Shown: positions 47,258 through 57,599, counted from the first letter of the stretch. The stretch: 64,000 bases of DNA from a bacterium (GCA_021791445.1 JAJYWO010000010.1:1304-65303); one strand, 5' to 3'. Numbers and translations are program-made. The notes: a model not told the origin generated them from the sequence alone.

Positions 47258-47280
47258 AGCCGAACACTCGGCTTTTTTTA
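47258..47280 (+). terminator. Rho-independent terminator AGCCGA-acac-TCGGCT plus a T7 run
   Basis: Read directly. It is preceded by a TTGACA-type promoter-like sequence at 47194-47220, so a short ~60-80-nt transcript is possible. Confidence 0.55.
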
Positions 47281-47469
47281 AAGAATTAAGAAAAATATGG
47301 AACCTAAAATAAATTTTTGGGAATTTTGCGCGCGTGTATACGAAATTTACAAGTATATAATAATTACCGGGTTTAGTTAGTTTAGTTATGGACTTATTCC
47401 CGCCAGAGGCGGACAGGCGCGCGAATAGTGGAATAATAAGAAATAAAATAAAAAATTTGTAAAATGAAT

Positions 47470-47600
47470 CGCGGGCTTGACTTTTGGGGTGAGATATGCT
47501 TATATAAATATAGTTTAAACACGGGATTGAACTTTGAAAAACATTCGTCATAGACGGATAAAATGATAGATAGAAAATTTTAGATAAGGAGGATAAGGAG
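47470..47600 (+). promoter_or_regulatory. Conserved promoter + 5' leader element, copy 1 of 3: cgcgggcTTGACTtttggggtgagatatgcTTATATAaat, a leader hairpin (cgtc-ata-gacg), ggataaaatgatagatagaaaa, then the SD ggaggataaggag
   Basis: Near-identical ~45-nt promoter core in all three copies. The leader hairpin shows compensatory changes between copies (cgtc/gacg vs ccgcc/ggcgg vs cagcgg/ccgctg). Confidence 0.75.
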
Positions 47601-48641
47601 ATGAATGAAATTTCCACGATAAAATTAATGTGGTTAACTGTTAATCGCGAATGTAATTTCCGTTGTAATTGGTGTTATGCGGCAGGAAGCGAATATCAGG
47701 CAAAAGATGAAATGTCTTTGCCGTTCGCTCTTGATCTTCTTGAAATTGCAAAACAACTTGGGATTGGCAAGTTATTTCTAATCGGGGGAGAGCCAACCCT
47801 TTGGCCTTATTTGTTTGATTTTAATGACGCGATGATATCCGCTAAAATAAAATCTACGCTTGTAACTAATGCGTATAGATTTTCTAGCGATAGGTTTTGG
47901 AGGAAATACATTGAGCATCCAAATACCCATATAGGCGCTTCATTTAAAGCTTTTAATCCGAAAAGTTTGATTGAGAATACAAAGGCCACTGCATTCGCCG
48001 ATGTTACAAAAGGTCTTCAAAGAGTTTTTGAATATCAACCAAATAGTATAGCCAGTTTTGTGTATTCACGGCCATATGTGTCTCATTTCCTGGATATGAT
48101 GAAATATGCCGTTGACTGCGGAGCATTTGGTGTGTCTGTGAATTTTTGTTCTCCGGCTATACACAAAGACCGCATAGATGATAAATTCTTAATTGATATT
48201 GACGTATTAGTTAAGGAAATAATATCTACTTATGAAGAAGCGCATGCGATTACGGGCGGTCGTCTTGTGTTTGTTATGAAACACCCTCTTTGTATTTGGC
48301 CTAAAGATTTTATTCAAATTTTGAAAGACAGGGGGCAGATTTCAACCACATGTCACCTCCAACATCAATCAGGGGGCATTATTGATACAGACGGTTCATT
48401 GTTAATTTGCAACAGCATGTTTGGCTTCCCCGTTGGCAGATACGGACAGGATTTTAAATCTGCCGAGTCGCTGGCAACTTTTTTTGGATCAAAGCAAATG
48501 AGAAATTACTTTGCTCAAGTAAGGGCGTATCCTTCCAAGAAGTGCATTGATTGTGAAGTCTTTGAAGACTGTTCAGGGGGTTGTCCATTGTTGTGGACAG
48601 TGTATTCGCCTGACAGCGTAATTACAGGGTGGTCAAAGTAG
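47601..48641 (+). CDS. Radical SAM enzyme with a C-terminal SPASM domain (peptide-modifying maturase type)
   Basis: CNFRCNWC (Cx3Cx2C) near the N-terminus and C-terminal CIDCEVFEDCSGGC (Cx2Cx5Cx3C), plus upstream CHLQH...ICNS auxiliary Cys. Confidence 0.85.
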   Translation: MNEISTIKLMWLTVNRECNFRCNWCYAAGSEYQAKDEMSLPFALDLLEIAKQLGIGKLFLIGGEPTLWPYLFDFNDAMISAKIKSTLVTNAYRFSSDRFWRKYIEHPNTHIGASFKAFNPKSLIENTKATAFADVTKGLQRVFEYQPNSIASFVYSRPYVSHFLDMMKYAVDCGAFGVSVNFCSPAIHKDRIDDKFLIDIDVLVKEIISTYEEAHAITGGRLVFVMKHPLCIWPKDFIQILKDRGQISTTCHLQHQSGGIIDTDGSLLICNSMFGFPVGRYGQDFKSAESLATFFGSKQMRNYFAQVRAYPSKKCIDCEVFEDCSGGCPLLWTVYSPDSVITGWSK

Positions 48642-48642
48642 A

Positions 48643-49365
48643 TTGACCATAACGAATCCTCTGGCGCATCGTAACGCGTCAGAGGATTTTTTTGCTAAAT
48701 CGAAAATTATAAGTTATATTAATAAAATCATGCTTGTTATACCCATAAAATTTCAATTTAATATTGAATCCGAGGTGCGCAGAGTAAGGGAGACTCTTGA
48801 TAATTTTAAATGGCTTACCAAAAATAATTACAGGTTTCTTTTGCCGAACGGCATAAAGGATTCTAAAGACATAAAAATAGAAATGATTAGAAAGTTAGTG
48901 GAAGATGAGTATGACTTGAATATTTATCAGATTGCCGAGAGCGCCATTTTAAAATCATGGGAAGGGAACAGTGGTTTAATGAGAAAAATTAACCAAAAGA
49001 TGAATGGTTCGTATATGTTGGATGAGGTCACTGTAATTTTAACCAGATATGGCACTCAGGGAAGCTATATGACACCTAATTCAGCGATTATAAATATTTC
49101 TAATATTCCTTCCGAGTTTCTAATTAAAACTGTTATACACGAGTCCTTGCATTTAATGATTGAACATTTAATCAAAAAATATTCAGTTGAGCATTGGGTT
49201 AAGGAACGTATAGTAGATTTAATAATGGATTTTGAATATAAATCTCGTTTTAAAATGCAGTCTGCGCCTAATTGGGTTTTTATTACAGATGAGATATTTA
49301 AAGGGTATTATCCGGATATGAATTTAATAATAGAAGGGGCAGCTAAAATTTTTCCTGATAAGTAA
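48643..49365 (+). CDS. HExxH-motif protein (putative zinc metallopeptidase), paralog 1 of 3
   Basis: TVIHESLHLMIEH. Translationally coupled to the rSAM gene, with a 1-nt gap. Confidence 0.6.
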   Translation: MTITNPLAHRNASEDFFAKSKIISYINKIMLVIPIKFQFNIESEVRRVRETLDNFKWLTKNNYRFLLPNGIKDSKDIKIEMIRKLVEDEYDLNIYQIAESAILKSWEGNSGLMRKINQKMNGSYMLDEVTVILTRYGTQGSYMTPNSAIINISNIPSEFLIKTVIHESLHLMIEHLIKKYSVEHWVKERIVDLIMDFEYKSRFKMQSAPNWVFITDEIFKGYYPDMNLIIEGAAKIFPDK

Positions 49366-49383
49366 TTTGCTGTGTATAAAAAA

Positions 49384-49420
49384 AGCCCTCAGCACATTTA
49401 ATTAAAAAATGTGCCGAGGG
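49384..49420. terminator. Bidirectional terminator gccctcagcacattt-aattaaa-aaatgtgccgaggg
   Basis: 14-15-bp stem with a T-run on the minus strand and A/T on the plus strand. Sits between convergent genes. Confidence 0.75.
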
Positions 49421-49445
49421 TTGTCGTTTCGGATGGAGATATTCT

Positions 49446-49607
49446 CTCACTCGTCTGCACAGTCGCAATTGCATTCGCATGCTCCCCAGCCGCCATCACA
49501 ATTACTGGTTATACAGTCACAATCACCGCGGATTTGAGGGGAAAAGCCTTTGACGCTTCTCGTGCATGGTATTTCCGTTGTCTTAAGGAATCTAACGAAT
49601 TTATCCA
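49446..49607 (-). CDS. Unannotated 53-aa Cys/Asp-rich precursor-like peptide (SCIFF/ranthipeptide-like): VDKFVRFLKTTEIPCTRSVKGFSPQIRGDCDCITSNCDGGWGACECNCDCADE
   Basis: Minus strand: SD AAAGGAGGTGA, 7 nt, GTG start, 8 Cys concentrated in the C-terminal 24 residues, stop followed by a strong terminator. A TTGTAT-17-TAATAT promoter lies upstream. The plus-strand ORF 49411..49692 on the opposite strand is judged spurious. Confidence 0.7.
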
Positions 49608-49681
49608 CTATTTCTCACCTCCTTTCTATTTGAATTTTCTAATAAAAATATTAACATTATTTTTTGATTTATACAATAACC

Positions 49682-49906
49682 CTATTTTTTAAGATCTTCA
49701 AATAATTTAGTATTTTTTGGATTATTCAGATAATGTTTAAAATGTTTTATTTCGTCGACTAAAATCTTTTCAAATTTACTTATCCAGATTTTATTAAAAC
49801 GCGGTTGAAATATTTCAAAAATTTTTTTAAATTCGTCTTTTTTGACAAGTCCTTCCAATTCGTTCCAAGCTTCTTTTTCCGGATATGTAAAAAATATCTG
49901 TCCCAA
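49682..49906 (-). CDS. Small hypothetical Lys/Glu-rich protein (74 aa), upstream of the precursor peptide. It overlaps the 5' end of 49842..50618 on the other strand, so one of the two starts is wrong
   Basis: ORF with plausible composition. No motif recognised. Confidence 0.35.
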   Translation of the reverse strand: MGQIFFTYPEKEAWNELEGLVKKDEFKKIFEIFQPRFNKIWISKFEKILVDEIKHFKHYLNNPKNTKLFEDLKK

Positions 49907-50618
49907 ATATTTTGACTATTGTGATGATGGCAGGAATTTGGAATGGGCGATTTTGAGAAAATATCCGGAATTTAAAAAATATAAAAGAAATAAATTAGAT
50001 GTCAATGAAAAGCAAATTTCAATATTTGTAAATTCTATTTATCAAAAGAACAATAAAATAATCAGAAAAAATCTTGATTTATATAAAAAAAGTTGGGCGA
50101 AACTGGGGAAAGACTATTTTGTTTTAGTTAGCCAGATTTTCGGCGATTATAAATGGCCATTAGGAAAATATATTGTTTATCTGACAATTTGGGGGATGCA
50201 CCCGCGTTTTTTAGAAGATAAAACTTTTCAAATCCCTTTTCGCCATAAGAATGAAAAATATATAAATGTGATTATTGCCCACGAAATGCTTCATTTTATA
50301 TTTTATGATTATTTTTATAATAAATTTCCCCAATATAAATCAAACAAATACAATTTTTTCGTATGGAACATATCGGAAATTTTTAACAATATAGCGCAGG
50401 ATTCTCCGCAATGGATTAAAATTTTTAAAGCTAAATCTATGCCTTATCCGGAACATAAAAAAATAGTGAATAAATTAAAGAAAAAATTTTATAAAAAAAG
50501 CGTTATTATAGCTAAAGATTTAATAAAAGAAATTATAAAAAATAAAGATTTTTTACCAATTTTCGCGGGCTTGACTTTTGGGGTGAGATATGCTTATATA
50601 AATATAATTAAGGGATAG
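49842..50618 (+). CDS. HExxH-motif protein, paralog 2 of 3. The TTG start from the track is uncertain. Its C-terminus is translated through the conserved promoter element of the next operon
   Basis: NVIIAHEMLHFIFYDY. The C-terminus FAGLTFGVRYAYINI is encoded by the cgcgggcttgacttttgggg... promoter repeat. Confidence 0.55.
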   Translation: MTSPSNSFQASFSGYVKNICPKYFDYCDDGRNLEWAILRKYPEFKKYKRNKLDVNEKQISIFVNSIYQKNNKIIRKNLDLYKKSWAKLGKDYFVLVSQIFGDYKWPLGKYIVYLTIWGMHPRFLEDKTFQIPFRHKNEKYINVIIAHEMLHFIFYDYFYNKFPQYKSNKYNFFVWNISEIFNNIAQDSPQWIKIFKAKSMPYPEHKKIVNKLKKKFYKKSVIIAKDLIKEIIKNKDFLPIFAGLTFGVRYAYINIIKG

Positions 50619-50691
50619 TTCTTAAAAACAAACAGCGGTTTTCAGCCGCTGAAAAATAAGATAGAAAAATTTAGAAATGAGGAGGTAAATC
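50561..50691 (+). promoter_or_regulatory. Conserved promoter + leader element, copy 2 (TTGACT at 50571-50576). Leader hairpin cagcgg-ttttcag-ccgctg, then aaaataagatagaaaa, then SD gaggaggtaa
   Basis: See copy 1. Confidence 0.75.
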
Positions 50692-51999
50692 ATGTTATAT
50701 CAGACACTTTCGGCACCAATAAATTGCCAGATAGAGCTTACGACTTCTTGTAGTCATAATTGTTCTCATTGCTATAATTTCTGGCGGAAGGATATTGAAA
50801 GAGTCAATAATTTTCTTAAAGAAACAGATGTTAGTAAAATTATACGGAAAATAGCGGACGCAAAAGTATTTGATATCATAATTACCGGCGGTGAGCCGTT
50901 AATAAAATATGATATTCTCATACATTGTATTAAGGAGGCGCGAAGCGCAGGATTGGGCATTTCTTTGAATTCAAATTTAGTTTCGTTAACCAGGGCTCGC
51001 GCGCGCGAATTGCGTTCTTTGGGTATAAAACAAATACTCACGTCTTTAATGGGTCCATCAGCGGAAATACATGATAAAATTGCCCAATCAAAAGGGTCAT
51101 TTGAAAGAGTTGTGAGAAATATACAATTAGCCAATGAAGAAAAGATTAATATTGTCGCCAATATGGTAGTTTCAAAAATTAATCTTTCTTTTGTTAGGGA
51201 CACGGCAAAGTTTGTTTCTTCTATTGGAATTAAGAAGTTTGCGGCTACCAAAGCGGGATGTCCGGGAAATTGTTTCGATTTCTCGCAATTCTCATTATCA
51301 AAAGAAGAATTTAAGAAATATTTACAAGATTTACAAGAAGTTGGCGAAGAGCTCGGTATTGCAATTGATGCGCTTGAGGGATATCCATTGTGTGGAATCG
51401 GCGACCTTAATCGTTATTATTCATTTATTGGAAGGAAATGTTATGCTGGCGTAACTACGATAACTATTGCCAGCGATGGCGAAGTTAGACCATGTTCCCA
51501 TCTTGATGTTTCGTATGGAAATTTACTTACAAAAGATTTGGCGGAGATTTGGACACGCATGGCTCCATGGAGAAATGGCGCATACTTACCAAATACTTGT
51601 AAAAGTTGTAAAATTTTACATGTGTGCGGTGGCGGTTGTCGTATGGAGGCGAAGATGCGCAGCGGGAATATTTCAGGAATGGATCCGTACAGTATGCCCA
51701 ACGATATTGAAAAGAGTTTATATTCACTTCAAGAACATCAGAAAAATATGTTTTATAAGGCGCCATTGAAAAATTTTGAAATAAGGCCTTATCGCTATCG
51801 ACATGAATCTTTTGGAGCCGTTGTTCTTGTGGGGAAATCTCGAGCATTTCTAAGTGCAACCGGTCTTAAACTCTTTAAGCAGTTTGAAATATCGTCTACG
51901 TATTCATTACAAGACGAAAGAATTCAGTGGGGCGCTTTGAATCCGGTCGATTTTATTCGCGGCCTTATTCAAAGAGGAATCGCTGTTGGAAAACAGTGA
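50692..51999 (+). CDS. Radical SAM enzyme with a SPASM domain, second maturase
   Basis: CSHNCSHC (Cx3Cx2C) and C-terminal CKSCKILHVCGGGC (Cx2Cx5Cx3C), plus CGIGD...C auxiliary cluster residues. Confidence 0.85.
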   Translation: MLYQTLSAPINCQIELTTSCSHNCSHCYNFWRKDIERVNNFLKETDVSKIIRKIADAKVFDIIITGGEPLIKYDILIHCIKEARSAGLGISLNSNLVSLTRARARELRSLGIKQILTSLMGPSAEIHDKIAQSKGSFERVVRNIQLANEEKINIVANMVVSKINLSFVRDTAKFVSSIGIKKFAATKAGCPGNCFDFSQFSLSKEEFKKYLQDLQEVGEELGIAIDALEGYPLCGIGDLNRYYSFIGRKCYAGVTTITIASDGEVRPCSHLDVSYGNLLTKDLAEIWTRMAPWRNGAYLPNTCKSCKILHVCGGGCRMEAKMRSGNISGMDPYSMPNDIEKSLYSLQEHQKNMFYKAPLKNFEIRPYRYRHESFGAVVLVGKSRAFLSATGLKLFKQFEISSTYSLQDERIQWGALNPVDFIRGLIQRGIAVGKQ

Positions 52000-52033
52000 T
52001 TATGTAAAAATATCTCAAAAGGAGGTAATCGCT

Positions 52034-52162
52034 ATGCCAAAAGATGACGGTTTTGTTTCATTCGTTCAAATAGAAAAAAACCAAACAGAAAATCTTACGG
52101 CTGTTCAAAACTGCGACTGTTATGATTGCGACTACAACTGCGAAGAGTGCGATAGCAAATGA
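52034..52162 (+). CDS. Unannotated 42-aa Cys/Asp-rich precursor-like peptide: MPKDDGFVSFVQIEKNQTENLTAVQNCDCYDCDYNCEECDSK
   Basis: SD AAAGGAGGTAA 7 nt before the ATG, directly downstream of the rSAM stop. Five Cys in the last 16 residues, with a CDC motif shared with peptide A. A terminator follows. Confidence 0.75.
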   Translation: MPKDDGFVSFVQIEKNQTENLTAVQNCDCYDCDYNCEECDSK

Positions 52163-52184
52163 TCATAGATCATTTGTTGATCTC

Positions 52185-52214
52185 AAAGAGATAAAGGATT
52201 TCCTTTATCTCTTT
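52185..52214. terminator. Bidirectional terminator aaagagataaagga-ttt-cctttatctcttt plus a T run
   Basis: 13-14-bp stem. Sits between precursor B (+) and the HExxH paralog 3 (-). Confidence 0.75.
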
Positions 52215-53080
52215 TTTATTTGGATCGGTTTTTGATATTTAAGTAGAATATGCGGTTTTTTATATAATTGATTTCCATAGCGGTTCCAAACGGCGCGTTT
52301 TTTTGAAAAATCTTTATTAATTGGCAAAAGAATATTTAATATTTCTTGCAGGAAAGTTTTAAAAGTTTTTTTATTTTTTATTTTTATAATTTGATAATAT
52401 TCATTAATAAATTCAGTAAAAGAAATAATTACGCCATCGGACTTTTTAATTTGCAGGTCGCGAATTTCCGGATTGCCTTGATAATTTTTTAATTTAAGAA
52501 TTTTATTAAGAGGTTTTTGGTTAAGCAATACGGCGGTCAAAGTTTCTTTAAAATAGTTTTTAAAATCTTCTGGGACTTTTTTTCGTTTCAATTTTTTAAG
52601 AAAATTAAAAAGAATGAAATGCGATATTTCATGGATAGCAATAAAAAGAATATCTCTGCCACCTTTTCTTTTTATCTGTTCAAGAATTGAAAAATAAAAA
52701 ACATTGTTGCCAAAAGGAGAAAATGGAAGAATTGTCGGCATGGCTGTGTAGTCGGGGTGATTTTTTGGCCATTGATAATCCATTAATTTCGCCAATTTGA
52801 TGAGCGCTTTTTTTTCTTTTTCTTTTAATATTTTTTTCGATTGAACAATAATTTTTTTGATTTTTTTATCGTTTTTTTTATAAAAATCTTTAATGAATTC
52901 TTTTATAATAGTTTTTTCTTTATTTTTATTTTTCTCTGTTTTTAACAAAATTTCCAATTCGGGAAAGGATTTAAAAATAATAAATTTATGTTGAGGATAA
53001 TAATGATGGTGTAAAAATTTTAAAAATAGATCAACTTCTTTATTTAAGTCATATGTAATTTTAATAGAAGGAATTTTCAT
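52205..53080 (-). CDS. HExxH-motif protein, paralog 3 of 3
   Basis: LFIAIHEISHFILFNF, Lys-rich, 291 aa. SD aaaggaaa lies upstream of the ATG at 53080. Confidence 0.55.
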   Translation of the reverse strand: MKIPSIKITYDLNKEVDLFLKFLHHHYYPQHKFIIFKSFPELEILLKTEKNKNKEKTIIKEFIKDFYKKNDKKIKKIIVQSKKILKEKEKKALIKLAKLMDYQWPKNHPDYTAMPTILPFSPFGNNVFYFSILEQIKRKGGRDILFIAIHEISHFILFNFLKKLKRKKVPEDFKNYFKETLTAVLLNQKPLNKILKLKNYQGNPEIRDLQIKKSDGVIISFTEFINEYYQIIKIKNKKTFKTFLQEILNILLPINKDFSKKRAVWNRYGNQLYKKPHILLKYQKPIQIKKR

Positions 53081-53120
53081 GTTAAAATTTTATCAAATTT
53101 CCTTTATTTTATCCAATTTT

Positions 53121-53255
53121 CGCGGACTTGACTTTTGGGGCGAGATATGCTTATATAAATACAATTTAAGCAAGGGGTTGGACTTTGAAAAACATCCGCC
53201 ATGGGCGGATAAAATGATAGATAGAAAAAATTCAGAAAAATAGGAGGATAAGGAG
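53121..53255 (+). promoter_or_regulatory. Conserved promoter + leader element, copy 3 (TTGACT at 53128-53133). Leader hairpin ccgcc-atg-ggcgg, ggataaaatgatagatagaaaa, SD ggaggataaggag
   Basis: See copy 1. Confidence 0.75.
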
Positions 53256-53747
53256 ATGACGAAGAATATTATAGGATTTCTGTTAGTTTTCTGCATTTTC
53301 GCCATTGGCGCAAATTTAATGGCGGAAGAGGATTATGGTAATGTTGGCCCGACGTTAAAGGATTTCATTATTGCTAAAGAAGGAGATAATTTGAGGCTCA
53401 GCTTCTCTTTCTTTAACGTCAAAGGCGGGTTGGCTGCAGCCACTTTCACAGTTGGTTATGTTATTGAAAGGGGTGAGTCGACCATAGAGTCAAATGTGAT
53501 GACCAATCTCGGAATTGCTCCGGATTTGGCGAAGGTGTCTAAATTAAAGTCAAAAATAGACATTTTCCAAATTGAAACCGGTGAATTTCAAGTTGTCATT
53601 CCGTGGCTCCGGGCCCAGAGTATCAAAGATTTGGAGTTAAAATCAGGCGATAAGATTAAATATCTTATCTACTTGACGGATAAGAACGGCAGAAAATCAA
53701 ACACCGTCTTCTGTGAATATTTATTCATAGAAGAATGGAACATTTAA
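53256..53747 (+). CDS. Secreted hypothetical protein (signal peptide)
   Basis: MTKNIIGFLLVFCIFAIGANLMA signal. Confidence 0.5.
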   Translation: MTKNIIGFLLVFCIFAIGANLMAEEDYGNVGPTLKDFIIAKEGDNLRLSFSFFNVKGGLAAATFTVGYVIERGESTIESNVMTNLGIAPDLAKVSKLKSKIDIFQIETGEFQVVIPWLRAQSIKDLELKSGDKIKYLIYLTDKNGRKSNTVFCEYLFIEEWNI

Positions 53748-53769
53748 CCAAAAAAACAGGAGAATTGAA

Positions 53770-54297
53770 ATGAGAAAGATAATGATGGTAGGAATGCTGC
53801 TGGTATTTGCAATGCTGGCAGTGGGATGCGCGGGGATGATGGGGGAAAGCGGCATAAGGAATAAAATGATAAATATCACTAACGTTGATAGTGCCAATAA
53901 TAATGTGATATACTACTCACCAATTCTCTATGATAATGGTTTTACTCGTTGGAACGTTGTTACCAATGAACGCCTTAAAAACCCGGGTAAATATCATTTA
54001 GAGTTTAAAAAAATTCTTGTAAAAGAGATAGAAAGGGTTTTTAAAGAAAGGGGGTATGCTCTGGTTGAAAAAAATCCTCCCTCAAATTCTAATTCAATCT
54101 ATATTGAATTAAGAATCTCTTTATGGGGGAAAGAATCTCATCCCAGAGGAGTTAGTGGCACAAGATGGTTAGTCTATCAAGGAGACAAGCTCGCTTTTGA
54201 AATTTATTACTGGACATTCGGCACCTACGATGAAATGGCAAAAATTCTTGCAAATAAAGCGACGGACAGTCTTCTCGATGAAATAAAGAGAAAATAA
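53770..54297 (+). CDS. Hypothetical lipoprotein (lipobox LAVGC)
   Basis: MRKIMMVGMLLVFAMLAVGCAG. Confidence 0.55.
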   Translation: MRKIMMVGMLLVFAMLAVGCAGMMGESGIRNKMINITNVDSANNNVIYYSPILYDNGFTRWNVVTNERLKNPGKYHLEFKKILVKEIERVFKERGYALVEKNPPSNSNSIYIELRISLWGKESHPRGVSGTRWLVYQGDKLAFEIYYWTFGTYDEMAKILANKATDSLLDEIKRK

Positions 54298-54407
54298 TTA
54301 TCTTGTTCAGGCCCCATTAAATATCAAAGATTGGGGCCTGTTTTATTATTTTAGTTATCCACAGGCATTGTCTTGTAATAAATTTTTAATTTGTTAAAAT
54401 TATAATA

Positions 54408-55607
54408 ATGAAATTTTTTAATAATAAATTCTTTATTTCTTTTTTGATTTTAATGGTCTTGTTTTATAGTTTTTCAGTTAAAACTGCCGAGGCAAAAGGT
54501 GTAGCTACGTTTGTTGGTATTATTTTAATAGTTGTTGCTATTGTGGTATTCCCAGTTATAGCGGTTGGACTTTCACAGGGATTAGCTTTATCAACTGCTG
54601 GTATAATAACCGCAAGTGTTATTGGGGGTGGACTTATACTTGGTCAAATTGCTTGTCTTGCGGGCACAGACAATCCTGCATTTACTGGTTGTAGTGGCGA
54701 TAATTCCAACTGGCAAGGCGCCGCCGGCTCCCCAACTCTTCAAAACCAATCAGCAACTCCAATAATGAGTTCGGACGGAAACTGCATAACGGGATATACT
54801 CTTTCATATAGCGTCACAGACGCCTATCAATACGGAATATATAGAGACGGCAATCTGATAAAACAAGGAACATTGAATACCATTGTCCAACCATCTCCGT
54901 ATAACACCAGTTTTTCATACACGGATAATAATCTTACTCCAAATAAGGATATAAAATATAAACTCATCTTAATCGACAAAAACGGTAAACAATATCAGTA
55001 TCCGGAAATGAGTGTGTATACCGAATGCATCAAGCTGGATTTGAAAATGGATAACAAAGACGGAGCAAGAAATTATTTTTATCCTAACAATAATGCCGCT
55101 CTCCAATGGGAAACAATCGCCGCCACATCCTGTACGGCTTCCGGAGATTGGAGCGGAAGCAGGGGTCCGGCTTCGGGTTCGGAAGATTTGGGCTATCTTC
55201 CCAGAGGAACATCTAATCCCGGCCAAGGAAAAACATACAATTATTCCCTCACTTGCCAATACCCAAAGGATAAAACCCTTTCTGACAGCGTTTCCGTAAC
55301 CATATTCAAATATCCTGATTGTACTTTTACGGCCAACCCGGATGTCATAGAAATCTTGCCCGCCACATCCACTTTATCCTGGAATTGCCGGTATTTGGGC
55401 GCTCCCACTCAATCTTCGGTTAATTCTTGTTCCATAGACCAAGGCATAGGTAATCTGACTCAGCTTCCCGATGGCTCAATGGATGTCCGTCCCTCCCAGG
55501 AAACCACTTACACCATGACTTGCGATTCCATTGATAAAATCACAGATTATCAGGCTTCCGTAAAAGTGGGTTTCAGGCCCAGAGTGAGGGAGATTATTCC
55601 GAGATAA
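54408..55607 (+). CDS. Hypothetical protein with N-terminal TM helices and a Cys-containing extracytoplasmic beta-rich domain
   Basis: ORF plus hydrophobic N-terminus. Confidence 0.45.
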   Translation: MKFFNNKFFISFLILMVLFYSFSVKTAEAKGVATFVGIILIVVAIVVFPVIAVGLSQGLALSTAGIITASVIGGGLILGQIACLAGTDNPAFTGCSGDNSNWQGAAGSPTLQNQSATPIMSSDGNCITGYTLSYSVTDAYQYGIYRDGNLIKQGTLNTIVQPSPYNTSFSYTDNNLTPNKDIKYKLILIDKNGKQYQYPEMSVYTECIKLDLKMDNKDGARNYFYPNNNAALQWETIAATSCTASGDWSGSRGPASGSEDLGYLPRGTSNPGQGKTYNYSLTCQYPKDKTLSDSVSVTIFKYPDCTFTANPDVIEILPATSTLSWNCRYLGAPTQSSVNSCSIDQGIGNLTQLPDGSMDVRPSQETTYTMTCDSIDKITDYQASVKVGFRPRVREIIPR

Positions 55608-55632
55608 AAGGTCGTAATTTTCAGATAAATTT

Positions 55633-55953
55633 ATGGATAATATGACAAACAATCAAATAGATATGGTTTGCCCTGACAAATTCAAACTCGGCAAGAAGTG
55701 GTTTTGGATCGGAATTATAATTTCCATTTTCAACATTGTTGGCGGTTTAGTTTACGGCATTGTTCTGCTTTTGGAAAAAAACCACAGAAAAGAGGGGATT
55801 ATCATCATCGCTTGGGCTATTATTTGGACCTTGTTCAGTTTTTTTGTAATCGGTCCTTATTTGGTCAAATCCGGCTTATTGCCTCAATTTCAAATAGCCC
55901 AACCCGCTCCTTCCATCCAGCAAGTTGAGCTTCCTCAGCAGATTTCGCAATAA
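55633..55953 (+). CDS. Small 2-TM membrane protein
   Basis: ORF plus two hydrophobic helices. Confidence 0.4.
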   Translation: MDNMTNNQIDMVCPDKFKLGKKWFWIGIIISIFNIVGGLVYGIVLLLEKNHRKEGIIIIAWAIIWTLFSFFVIGPYLVKSGLLPQFQIAQPAPSIQQVELPQQISQ

Positions 55954-57599
55954 TGTTTTTCATCAATCTTTCTGTTTTATTGAGCGCGGCTGCCGCCATT
56001 TCCTTTGAGATAATCGGCGGCAGCGTTTTGACGGTGCTTTTGGGCTCGTCAATTTATTATTTCTCGCTGGTTATCGGCGTTTTTTTGGCGGCTTTGGGAA
56101 TAGGCGGCTGGCTGTCCGCGAAACTGGAAAATAAGCTTGAAGAAAAATCAGCGCTCATTGCCGGATTTTTGTCTTTAATCGGCGGTAGCGCGGCTTTTGT
56201 TATTTTCGGCGGCTATGTTCTGGTTTTTGAAATTTTAAGGGGAATGGATTTTAATAATATATTCGGGTTTTTGGTTGGAGTAAGTTTTGGGCAATTATTT
56301 TTCAGTTTTTTCGCCTTGGCTTTCCTTTTTATTATCGGCGTTTTGGCGGGGCTTCTTTTGCCGCTTTTTTCTCGCACTGTTGCCGCGCGAACGGCGCTGA
56401 AAGACGCGCTGGGGAAAGTTTTTTTCTGGGATTACGTCGGCGCTTTGTTTGTTTCCGTGCTTTTGCCAATTTTATTTTTCCCCGCTCTCGGATTAATTAG
56501 AACTTCTTTTTTAATGGGATTGATGAGCGTGCTGGCCGCTTTGGCAATGGCAGTTTTTATGCGAAGAGAAAAAATAAAGTTGAGGCCAATTTTATTTTTG
56601 GTCTTAATTGCGGCTTTTATTGTGAATTTTGTCGGTTTTTTCAACGCCAATAAGATTGAAAATTTCTTGGAGAAAAAACAATATGGCGACCGCCAGATTC
56701 TTTATCGCGGCCAGTCGCCTTATCAAAAATTCGTTTTTCTTAAAGACGATAAAAGCGGAAAAATCAGCTTATACATCAATGGTCAGCGGCAATTTGAATC
56801 CGGCGAATGGGACGAGACTTATCATAAAACATTCGTCCGTCCGGCAATGGCGCTGAAACAATCAGCGCCAAATTTAAATGTTTTGGTTTTGGGCGGCGGC
56901 GACGGCTTGGCTTTGCGGGAAATTTTTAAATACGAAAATGTTTCAAAAGCGACTTTGGTGGATATTGATTCTTCGCTGGTGACGGCAGCAAAAAATCTGG
57001 AAGAAATGAAAGCGCTGAATGAAAATGCTTTCATTGATTCGCGGGTTGAAGTTGTTTTTAATGATGCTTTTAAATTCATTGAGGAAGATGCGGCAAAGTA
57101 TGATGTTGTTTTTATTGATTTTCCGGATCCCACGGACGACGGCTTGGCGAGATTGTATTCAAAAGAATTTTATTTGAATTTGAAAAAAGTTTTACAACCG
57201 GACGGAATCGTTGTTGTTCAAAGCGGCGGCTATATGATTGCGAGCCATAAAACAATTTTGCTGACAATGGAGGCGGTTGGGTTTAATGTTTTGGCTTTTC
57301 ATCCGATCAAATATGACATTCTTGACCAGAATTTCGGTTTTACTTTGGCGAGTAACGGCATTGTTTCGCCGAATGATTTGCCGCTTGGATTGAGAGATAT
57401 TTTTGCGGCCGCGCCGGTTCCCAAACAGAAATCGCCGGAAGAAATTAATTCCATTTTTCGGCCCGTAATCGTAAAAAACGTGGAAGGTGGGTTTATTGAA
57501 AACTATCTTCAATCTTTGCCAATGGAAAAAATCTTGGCGCAAATCAATCTCCCGCCCGAAAAAATCCGCGAAGAGTTCAAGAGAATGTTTTACGAGTAG
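55953..57599 (+). CDS. Membrane-fused spermidine-synthase-like aminopropyltransferase/methyltransferase-fold protein (multi-TM N-terminal domain plus SpeE-like C-domain)
   Basis: VLVLGGGDGLALREI (GGGDG), DVVFIDFPDPTDD, and at least 7 N-terminal TM segments. Confidence 0.7.
   Translation: MFFINLSVLLSAAAAISFEIIGGSVLTVLLGSSIYYFSLVIGVFLAALGIGGWLSAKLENKLEEKSALIAGFLSLIGGSAAFVIFGGYVLVFEILRGMDFNNIFGFLVGVSFGQLFFSFFALAFLFIIGVLAGLLLPLFSRTVAARTALKDALGKVFFWDYVGALFVSVLLPILFFPALGLIRTSFLMGLMSVLAALAMAVFMRREKIKLRPILFLVLIAAFIVNFVGFFNANKIENFLEKKQYGDRQILYRGQSPYQKFVFLKDDKSGKISLYINGQRQFESGEWDETYHKTFVRPAMALKQSAPNLNVLVLGGGDGLALREIFKYENVSKATLVDIDSSLVTAAKNLEEMKALNENAFIDSRVEVVFNDAFKFIEEDAAKYDVVFIDFPDPTDDGLARLYSKEFYLNLKKVLQPDGIVVVQSGGYMIASHKTILLTMEAVGFNVLAFHPIKYDILDQNFGFTLASNGIVSPNDLPLGLRDIFAAAPVPKQKSPEEINSIFRPVIVKNVEGGFIENYLQSLPMEKILAQINLPPEKIREEFKRMFYE

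Follow-up and report, generated by a model that had tools for sequence, protein, structure and literature searches.

A Repeated Promoter and 5′-Leader Cassette with a Covarying Hairpin in a Peptide Maturase Gene Cluster of a Patescibacteria Lineage

Layout of the Three Cassette Copies

The 64,000-nucleotide (nt) stretch GCA_021791445.1 JAJYWO010000010.1:1304-65303, called the window here and numbered from its first letter, matches the metagenome-assembled genome (MAG) GCA_027339105.1 of Patescibacteria, which are ultrasmall bacteria. It carries a gene cluster of the kind that makes peptides synthesized ribosomally and modified post-translationally (RiPPs), within and beside which a cassette of promoter and leader stands before three transcription units. 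A first-pass annotation of the sequence had described a near-identical core in three copies, each continued by a leader with a strong Shine-Dalgarno (SD) sequence at its end, and this description was borne out. A 35-nt core, CTTGACTTTTGGGGYGAGATATGCTTATATAAATA, occurs at 47476-47510, 50570-50604, and 53127-53161, always on the plus strand with 0 mismatches and 85-95 nt 5′ of a start codon. No match was seen in any of 100 shuffles (0/100), and none is expected by chance. No fourth copy was found in the window by nhmmer with a profile made from the three copies. All three leaders terminate in GGAGG, 6-8 nt before the ATG. The parts of the cassettes, in which P1 and P2 denote hairpins of the leader, are the following.

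47470-47603, plus strand: cassette copy 1
47470-47476, plus strand: GC box cgcgggc of copy 1
47477-47482, plus strand: −35 element TTGACT of copy 1, followed by a 17-nt spacer at 47483-47499
47500-47506, plus strand: −10 element TTATAT/TATATA of copy 1, with TATGC directly 5′ of it
~47512-47533, plus strand: P1 of copy 1, weak and AU-rich
47543-47559: P2 hairpin of copy 1, AUUCGUC-AUA-GACGGAU
47560-47586, plus strand: A/G-rich tract of copy 1, followed by GGAGG at 47588-47592 and ATG at 47601
50564-50694, plus strand: cassette copy 2
50564-50570, plus strand: cgcgggc of copy 2, followed by the −35 element at 50571-50576 and the −10 element at 50594-50600
50633-50651: P2 hairpin of copy 2 (type B), CAGCGGUU-UUC-AGCCGCUG
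50681-50685, plus strand: GGAGG of copy 2, followed by ATG at 50692
53087-53115, minus strand: divergent promoter-like site for HExxH3, in the 5′ flank of copy 3
53121-53258, plus strand: cassette copy 3, the probable native copy
53121-53127, plus strand: cgcggac of copy 3, followed by the −35 element at 53128-53133 and the −10 element at 53151-53157
53194-53210: P2 hairpin of copy 3, AUCCGCC-AUG-GGCGGAU
53243-53247, plus strand: GGAGG of copy 3, followed by ATG at 53256

The annotation had placed the three hairpins at the same positions, and its account of the downstream units, namely a radical S-adenosylmethionine (SAM) gene, a radical SAM/SPASM gene, and a signal-peptide operon with a Spermine_synth-domain membrane protein, likewise holds.

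47601-49365, plus strand: copy-1 unit, encoding the radical SAM maturase rSAM1 (47601-48641) and HExxH1
48643, plus strand: start of the HExxH1 open reading frame (ORF), the true start being probably near 48730
50692-52162, plus strand: copy-2 unit, encoding the radical SAM/SPASM maturase rSAM2 (50692-51999) and precursor peptide B (52034-52162)
52185-52214: terminator 3′ of the copy-2 unit
53256-57599, plus strand: copy-3 unit, with a 163-amino-acid (aa) signal-peptide protein first and the Spermine_synth-domain membrane protein last

Copies 1 and 3 are 86% identical over 136 nt. Copies 1 and 2 are 100% identical over 44 nt, after which their leaders agree at only ~66%, and over the 52-nt promoter region they are ~90% identical. 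As had also been annotated, copy 2 overlaps the end of the upstream HExxH2 ORF (49842/49953-50618): bases 50564-50618 double as coding sequence for its C-terminal tail of ~20 codons, with the stop codon at 50616-50618.

A Promoter of General Type

In the cassette promoter, TTGACT is separated by 17 nt from TTATAT or by 18 nt from TATATA, and TATGC, which resembles TRTG, lies just before the −10 element. The −35 and −10 hexamers thus lie within the spacing of 16-18 nt typical of sigma-70 promoters, 5′ of a gene, and the region upstream of the −35 element is A/T-rich and includes a CGC element. The conserved element that had been annotated just 5′ of the −35 element is present: (GG)ATTTTTCGC-N2-3-TTGACT is shared by copies 2 and 3 and by the related loci L146 and L147. 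Among the orthologues of rSAM1 (~12 loci, all that were retrieved), TTGAC(A/T) and TAnnnT are spaced by 16-17 nt and stand 95-110 nt before the ATG. A strict promoter scan of the window omits the cassette promoter, owing to its rule for positions 2 and 6.

The 45-nt core had been put forward as a signature by which a whole regulon might be found. While the three exact copies stand, the core proved to be largely a generic strong promoter. A genome-wide scan with the relaxed pattern CTTGACTTYT-N6-A-N-ATRTKY-N0-1-TATAT returned at least 118 loci from Clostridia, Saccharibacteria, Bacteroidota, Proteobacteria, and other groups, many with an SD sequence and start codon downstream in the sequence shown; the window's own genome is not among the matches listed, and cassette counts given here refer to the 64-kb window. 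An exact-core scan of viral contigs gave no match. Since the skeleton recurs in many phyla, most of the 45-nt core is a general strong-promoter form, and only the spacer GGGGYGAG and the cgcgg(g/a)c box are idiosyncratic. Judged by its motifs, the cassette promoter is of the generic strong sigma-70 form with an extended −10 element, that is, of the housekeeping-sigma type. What is unusual is the copying of a generic promoter in front of unrelated genes, not the promoter itself.

Two other promoter assignments were discarded. A sigma-54 promoter is suggested by TGG-N10-TGC, which fits the spacer; in the related L007b promoter, however, the GG is missing, and the −35 and −10 elements are canonical. 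A second promoter flanking P2 (TTGAAA-19-TAAAAT) is absent in copy 2 and in the orthologues.

Spread of the Cassette Independently of the Genes

Between the maturases rSAM1 and rSAM2, the aa identity is 23% over 173 aa, against 90-100% identity between their promoters; the cassette has therefore spread independently of the genes. The 163-aa protein is related to neither maturase. Upstream of copies 1, 2, and 3 lie an EamA-type gene, HExxH2 (plus strand), and the divergent HExxH3 (minus strand), which are counted as non-aligning. Putative mobile promoters have been defined by Matus-Garcia, Nijveen, and van Passel (2012) as upstream regions of at least 50 nt with at least 80% identity before non-homologous genes (PMC3488235). 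The window's cassettes behave in this way, in that the upstream regions align and neither the downstream nor the upstream coding sequences do. Replacement of an ancestral HExxH2 C-terminus by copy 2 was also considered and set aside, the similarity between HExxH2 and HExxH3 (28% over 104 aa, E=19) being too weak to show it.

Repetition of a cassette ahead of RiPP and secreted-protein genes recurs in related species, the cassette sequence being particular to each. In L005, rSAM1 and graspetide-type precursor/ATP-grasp units are preceded by four copies in all, while two copies each are present in L007, L014 (before rSAM1 and peptide A), and L142. Four more occur in L148, before a 158-aa homologue, an ATP-grasp gene, a radical SAM/SPASM gene, and a lipoprotein gene. 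The profile of the window copies misses the leaders of rSAM1 orthologues in other species; a family-level profile detects them and has 0 matches in 118 control loci. Copies within a genome are far more similar than orthologous leaders are across genomes, which points to repeated propagation or homogenization.

Probable Native Home of the Cassette and the Variable Island

Orthologues of the 163-aa protein were found in three other metagenomic genomes, with aa identities of 85% (L145), 74% (L146), and 65% (L147), and all three carry the same promoter type and leader. The secreted-protein operon behind copy 3 therefore appears, from this comparison, to be the native home of the cassette. In L147 and L146, the promoter ahead of the orthologous gene has the form TTGACTTTTT(T)GG... 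Between copy 3 and L147, the leaders are 73% identical, the coding sequences 65.5%, and the P2 stems are the same. L146 and L147 hold two cassette copies each, with differing spacers, whereas all three in the window have GGGGYGAG; the uniformity in the window is therefore recent and derived.

The L145 contig bears on the DNA between copies 1 and 3. Its bases 1-230 are 97% identical to the flank and cassette of copy 1, and its bases 93-980 are 86% identical to copy 3 and the operon, such that a single mosaic copy-1/copy-3 cassette stands directly before the operon and the intervening 5.65 kb are absent.

47470-53120, 5.65 kb: RiPP island between copies 1 and 3, absent from L145

Copies 1 and 3 are, on this ground, direct repeats that bound a variable island, which has 32-35% G+C against 39-46% in the flanks. 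Such an arrangement is as expected if the island were gained or lost by recombination at the cassette, either through insertion of a one-copy circle or through deletion between two copies.

P2, a Covarying Hairpin of the Leader

Each leader is built in the order CUUU-R-AAAAAC box, P2, AAAAGAUAGAAAA tract, and strong SD, the SD being unpaired in the minimum-energy fold. P2 was compared in 8 leaders from 4 genomes, in which W1, W2, and W3 are window copies 1-3.

Type A, AUUCGUC/GACGGAU: W1
Type A, AUCCGUC/GACGGAU: L145
Type A, AUCCGCC/GGCGGAU: W3 and L147_1
Type A, AUCCGUC/GGCGGAU: L147_2
Type A, AUCUCAC/GUGGGAU: L146_2, ahead of a 52-aa Cys-rich precursor
Type B, CAGCGGUU/AGCCGCUG: W2
Type B, AGCGGUU/AAUCGUU: L146_1

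Covariation among the window's own copies had been taken by the annotation as a sign of functional RNA structure. Copies 1 and 3 differ by a single compensatory stem pair (U-A to C-G), the other change being U.G to C-G, copy 2 has a different hairpin type, and the three copies alone have no statistical power for covariation. A selected sense-strand RNA structure does find support, mainly from the leaders of other genomes. In a MAFFT alignment of 6 sequences, 100% of the stem cells are paired and 2 pairs have changed on both sides, a score that 2/500 shuffles reach. A covariance model, which the annotation had proposed as a check, was built from the six leaders and also recovers W2 and L146_1 at E ~1e-3, to give the 8 leaders, in all of which the P2 pairing is kept; in 700 kb of unrelated loci this six-leader model has no match below E=3, and across all covariance searches of such loci none fell below E=0.3. 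In the alignment of 8 sequences, 56/56 stem cells are paired and 5/7 pairs have changed on both sides, with 0/500 shuffles reaching the score and only 25-45% of cells paired in slid controls. Compensatory changes across sequences, by which the helix of a structured cis-regulatory RNA is recognized, are thus present.

The strand asymmetry is of the same sense. Among the first 8 hairpins, G.U pairs outnumber C.A mismatches 6:1 and the plus-strand fold is the more stable in 6/8; across 11 hairpins the ratio is 8:1, with two G.U pairs added by L146_1 and none by L145 and L147_1. In relatives of L005, the hairpin loop varies from 3 to 7 nt. At protein identities as low as 65%, the sequence of the outer P2 pairs AUC...GAU and of the flanks AAAC and AAAAGAUAGAAAA is still kept. 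These comparisons give good support, rather than proof, for P2 as a sense-strand RNA helix under selection for pairing. P1, a weak AU-rich candidate hairpin ending in YCUUU, is found in almost all relatives, with −0.5 to −6.5 kcal/mol and marginal z-scores.

How the Cassette May Have Arisen and How P2 May Act

The probable explanation is that of a propagated promoter and 5′ untranslated region (UTR) cassette by which operons are co-expressed, with P2 acting after transcription. The module would consist of a housekeeping-sigma promoter and a 5′ UTR of ~90 nt, and would first have belonged to the 163-aa secreted-protein operon of the Patescibacteria lineage. Recombination in the window's lineage would then have set copies before the two RiPP maturase operons, the direction of copying being that suggested by the orthologues. 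Three unrelated transcription units would thereby receive an equal transcriptional input and, from the predicted transcription start, an equal leader. The role of P2 would be post-transcriptional, whether in mRNA stability or processing, in translation efficiency, or as the site for a common factor; a ligand switch or a terminator it is probably not. Directly supported are the repeat, its promoter-like anatomy and position, its orthologous conservation, the covarying and strand-asymmetric pairing of P2, and a relative's lack of the island.

Several points weigh against this explanation. P2 is absent from the distant members of the leader family (L011, L013, L014, L005_2, and L142), where the difference looks like an indel of ~16 nt after CUUUGAAAAC; the hairpin is therefore lineage-restricted and dispensable in some contexts. 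Folding z-scores of the whole leaders are unremarkable (−0.7, −2.3, and −1.9). The covariance model served as the template to which the 8 sequences, few in number and of common descent, were aligned. The island's absence is seen in one 983-nt metagenomic contig (L145), where identity to the window steps from 97% to 86% across the cassette, such that the contig could be recombinant or chimeric through assembly. Among stability, translation, and factor binding, the computations favor no one role for P2, and the transcription start is predicted from sequence.

The main rival, which is unlikely, is a regulated translational switch, or a site for a dedicated RNA-binding regulator, made up of P2 and its flanks; the 5′ arm, once freed, would sequester the SD or the start codon. 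In type A hairpins, the 5′ arm (AUCCGCC, or AUCUCAC-CUU) indeed resembles an anti-SD and the 3′ arm (GGCGGAU or GUGGGAU) an SD; the outer AUC...GAU pairs and both flanks keep their sequence down to 65% protein identity; and the computed minimum-energy fold in L146_2 and W1 pairs the 5′ arm with the SD or the start region. However, the type B hairpins (W2 and L146_1) lack complementarity to the SD; in W3, L145, and L147, P2 is stronger than the alternative fold by 4-8 kcal/mol; and no candidate regulator gene was found near the cluster in the window.

It is improbable that the inverted repeat is a DNA operator for a dimeric transcription factor. Although copy 3 and L147_1 are near-perfect 17-bp palindromes (ATCCGCC-N3-GGCGGAT) with the outer half-sites ATC/GAT conserved, 6/11 stems have G.U pairs, and these would be mismatched as duplex DNA; the inner positions change freely. 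The spacing of the half-sites, which is the loop, ranges from 3 to 7 nt in the L005 relatives, and the site would lie at ~+30 to +50, 3′ of the promoter. The excess of G.U pairs, the stability of the plus-strand fold, and the loop variation speak for an RNA helix on the sense strand and against an operator in duplex DNA.

A riboswitch or a transcription attenuator, both offered by the annotation, is very unlikely. The location in a 5′ UTR ahead of SAM-dependent enzymes and the covarying helix would suit either device, and a hairpin followed by an A-rich tail is superficially like preQ1-I. The leader nevertheless shows the defining features neither of a riboswitch nor of an intrinsic terminator or attenuator. 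The leaders have no Rfam match even at E<=10, and their one helix, of 7 bp with a variable 3-nt loop, is too small to hold an aptamer. After the stem comes AUAAAAUG or AAAAAUAAG instead of a U-tract, and the SD is free. An upstream ORF (MIDRK...) was considered and rejected, since it, and indeed any AUG, is present in only 3/8 leaders. Ligand sensing and attenuation are thus both unlikely because U-tract, Rfam match, and conserved upstream ORF are all missing, the SD is unpaired, and the helix is single with a variable 3-nt loop.

That the hairpin is an intrinsic terminator of antisense transcription, serving as an insulator, is scarcely credible: the minus-strand stem is followed by GUUUUUC or UUUGUUUUU, and a consensus scan marks copies 2 and 3 as minus-strand terminator-like, but the A-run CUUUGAAAAAC is kept in leaders without any hairpin and its place next to the hairpin is therefore incidental, the minus-strand folds are weaker in 6/8 as wobbles become C.A mismatches, and no minus-strand gene reads into copies 1 and 3. 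Equally hard to credit is the reading of the repeat as a mobile-element end, be it a miniature inverted-repeat transposable element, an insertion sequence (IS), or a repetitive extragenic palindrome (REP), or as functionless neutral debris of a recent duplication: the variable island and the overwriting of a gene's 3′ end by copy 2 speak for it, and of the terminal repeat that the annotation had named as a way for its case to fail, the bounding of a 5.65-kb island by copies 1 and 3 stands, yet terminal inverted repeats, target-site duplications, and a transposase are all missing, the three copies have the same orientation and end precisely at SD and ATG, and the leader is conserved at the orthologous position despite proteins only 65% identical.

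The propagated, co-expressing cassette could also be part of something larger. The leader may be an undescribed, Patescibacteria-specific cis-regulatory RNA, read by a dedicated factor or by the ribosome, which would define a post-transcriptional regulon coupling RiPP production to secreted proteins, lipoproteins, and surface proteins of the pilus neighborhood, with the cassette copies as recombination sites for gain and loss of the RiPP island. This extension is speculative and unlikely.

Genes of the Cluster and Further Observations

The cluster encodes two Cys/Asp-rich precursor peptides (A, minus strand, 49608-49447; B, plus strand, 52034-52162) and three HExxH proteins. The copy-3 operon encodes the 163-aa signal-peptide protein, a 175-aa lipoprotein, membrane proteins of 399 aa and 106 aa, and a 548-aa membrane protein with the Spermine_synth domain. 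Close rSAM1 homologues with a named source come mostly from Parcubacteria, Pacebacteria, or Patescibacteria MAGs, with one from Nitrospirota. The best NCBIfam match of rSAM1, which is sub-threshold, is the PapB ranthipeptide maturase family, and PapB joins Cys to Asp or Glu (PMC9413430). A ranthipeptide-like product of the cluster is plausible. Peptide A ends in ...GDCDCITSNCDGGWGACECNCDCADE and peptide B in ...NCDCYDCDYNCEECDSK.

The annotation had defined a small regulon by the cassette. Three units do share promoter and leader, but other units of the cluster have promoters of their own. Peptide A has no cassette and is preceded by TTGTAT-17-TAATAT and a 30-nt leader. HExxH3 (52205-53080, minus strand) is apparently leaderless, with TTGGAT-18-TAAAAT ending 6 nt ahead of the ATG.

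Peptide A is transcribed convergently and stops at a strong minus-strand terminator (49420-49386). Its L014 orthologue is preceded by that species' own cassette copy. The promoter-like −35 element of HExxH3 overlaps the CCAATTTT flank common to copies 2 and 3 (53080-53115, minus strand). Orthologues of HExxH1 begin ~88 nt past rSAM1 and comprise 211 aa, and the real start in the window is for this reason probably ~48730. Directly after the rSAM1 stop, within the listed HExxH1 ORF, a strong terminator-like hairpin lies at 48654-48689 (plus strand; 14 bp followed by UUUUUUUG), which may, by internal termination or processing, determine the rSAM1:HExxH1 ratio. A minus-strand ORF (49682-49906, 58-74 aa) overlaps the 5′ end of the HExxH2 ORF (49842-50618, plus strand), and a near-consensus minus-strand promoter, TTGACA-16-TATATT, lies within HExxH2 at 50005-49978. 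The 195-nt spacer 5′ of copy 1 (47275-47470) contains a CCGCC-AGA-GGCGG hairpin at 47400-47412 and two GCGCGCG blocks; from 47377 on it is 97% conserved in L145, and neither a gene nor an Rfam match was found in 47275-47470.

Two observations concern the relatives. In L005 (197-16508), a second promoter type, TTGCCT-17-TATAAT-TTAGGGT-ATG, with nearly no leader, has 7 copies in 16 kb and is seen again in L142 (8793-8840), which suggests a propagated family of promoters of leaderless genes. L148, L149, and L150 (8900-14500) are near-identical contigs with a common type IV pilus operon and the 158-aa homologue, but the calls downstream of an ATP-grasp gene, of an IS (rve), and of a radical SAM/SPASM gene vary among them, the latter two being called only in L148. 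By this comparison, RiPP genes are strain-variable beside the 158-aa homologue in another species too.

Significance and Comparison with Known Systems

Gene regulation in Patescibacteria has been described as virtually unknown (PMC11665869). The cassette is a concrete, testable promoter and 5′-UTR element for this group, and, being native and compact, it could be tried for gene expression in the genetic systems now emerging for Patescibacteria. In several species, it ties RiPP maturases and precursors to secreted proteins and lipoproteins, which hints at joint production, and the repeated promoter cassettes are suggested as seams for insertion or loss of RiPP islands.

The cassette resembles putative mobile promoters in that non-homologous genes of one genome are preceded by regions highly alike over at least 50 nt at 80% identity or more, in that conservation extends from just before the start codon to ~−130, and in the small size of the families per genome (PMC3488235). 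It differs from them in that the copies lie within 6 kb, in or beside one RiPP island that two of them bound, in its independent recurrence in several related species, and in a leader with a covarying hairpin.

In bacteriocin and lantibiotic clusters, such as nisA/nisF with NisR boxes and the pln operons of Lactobacillus plantarum, operons are co-expressed from near-identical promoters. These are weak and require a response regulator, encoded in the cluster, that attaches to direct repeats upstream. The present cluster is similar in placing several operons of one peptide cluster under near-identical promoter regions, whereas its hexamers come close to consensus, and neither a regulator gene nor a repeated box was found near it.

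Stem-loops in the 5′ UTR that stabilize mRNA or enhance translation are found in the ompA, ermC, and aprE leaders and in the STAB-SD of cryIIIA. Like these, the cassette combines a small stable hairpin, a long A/U-rich leader, and a strong unpaired SD, with structure conserved more than sequence. In contrast, P2 lies not at the predicted 5′ end but ~30-50 nt from it, and the sequence of its outer pairs and flanks is kept as well. The likeness to preQ1-I (a hairpin and then an A-rich tract near the SD) and to intrinsic terminators (a GC-rich stem in the leader) goes no further, as Rfam match and U-tract are missing and the 3-nt loop is unable to form a pseudoknot.

The cassette is a lineage-specific case of known kinds, namely propagated promoter/5′-UTR cassettes and co-expressed operons of peptide clusters, and P2 is an undescribed but simple covarying leader hairpin. 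Moderately new are the recurrence across Patescibacteria RiPP loci, the link to secreted-protein and lipoprotein genes, and the cassette copies as island boundaries.

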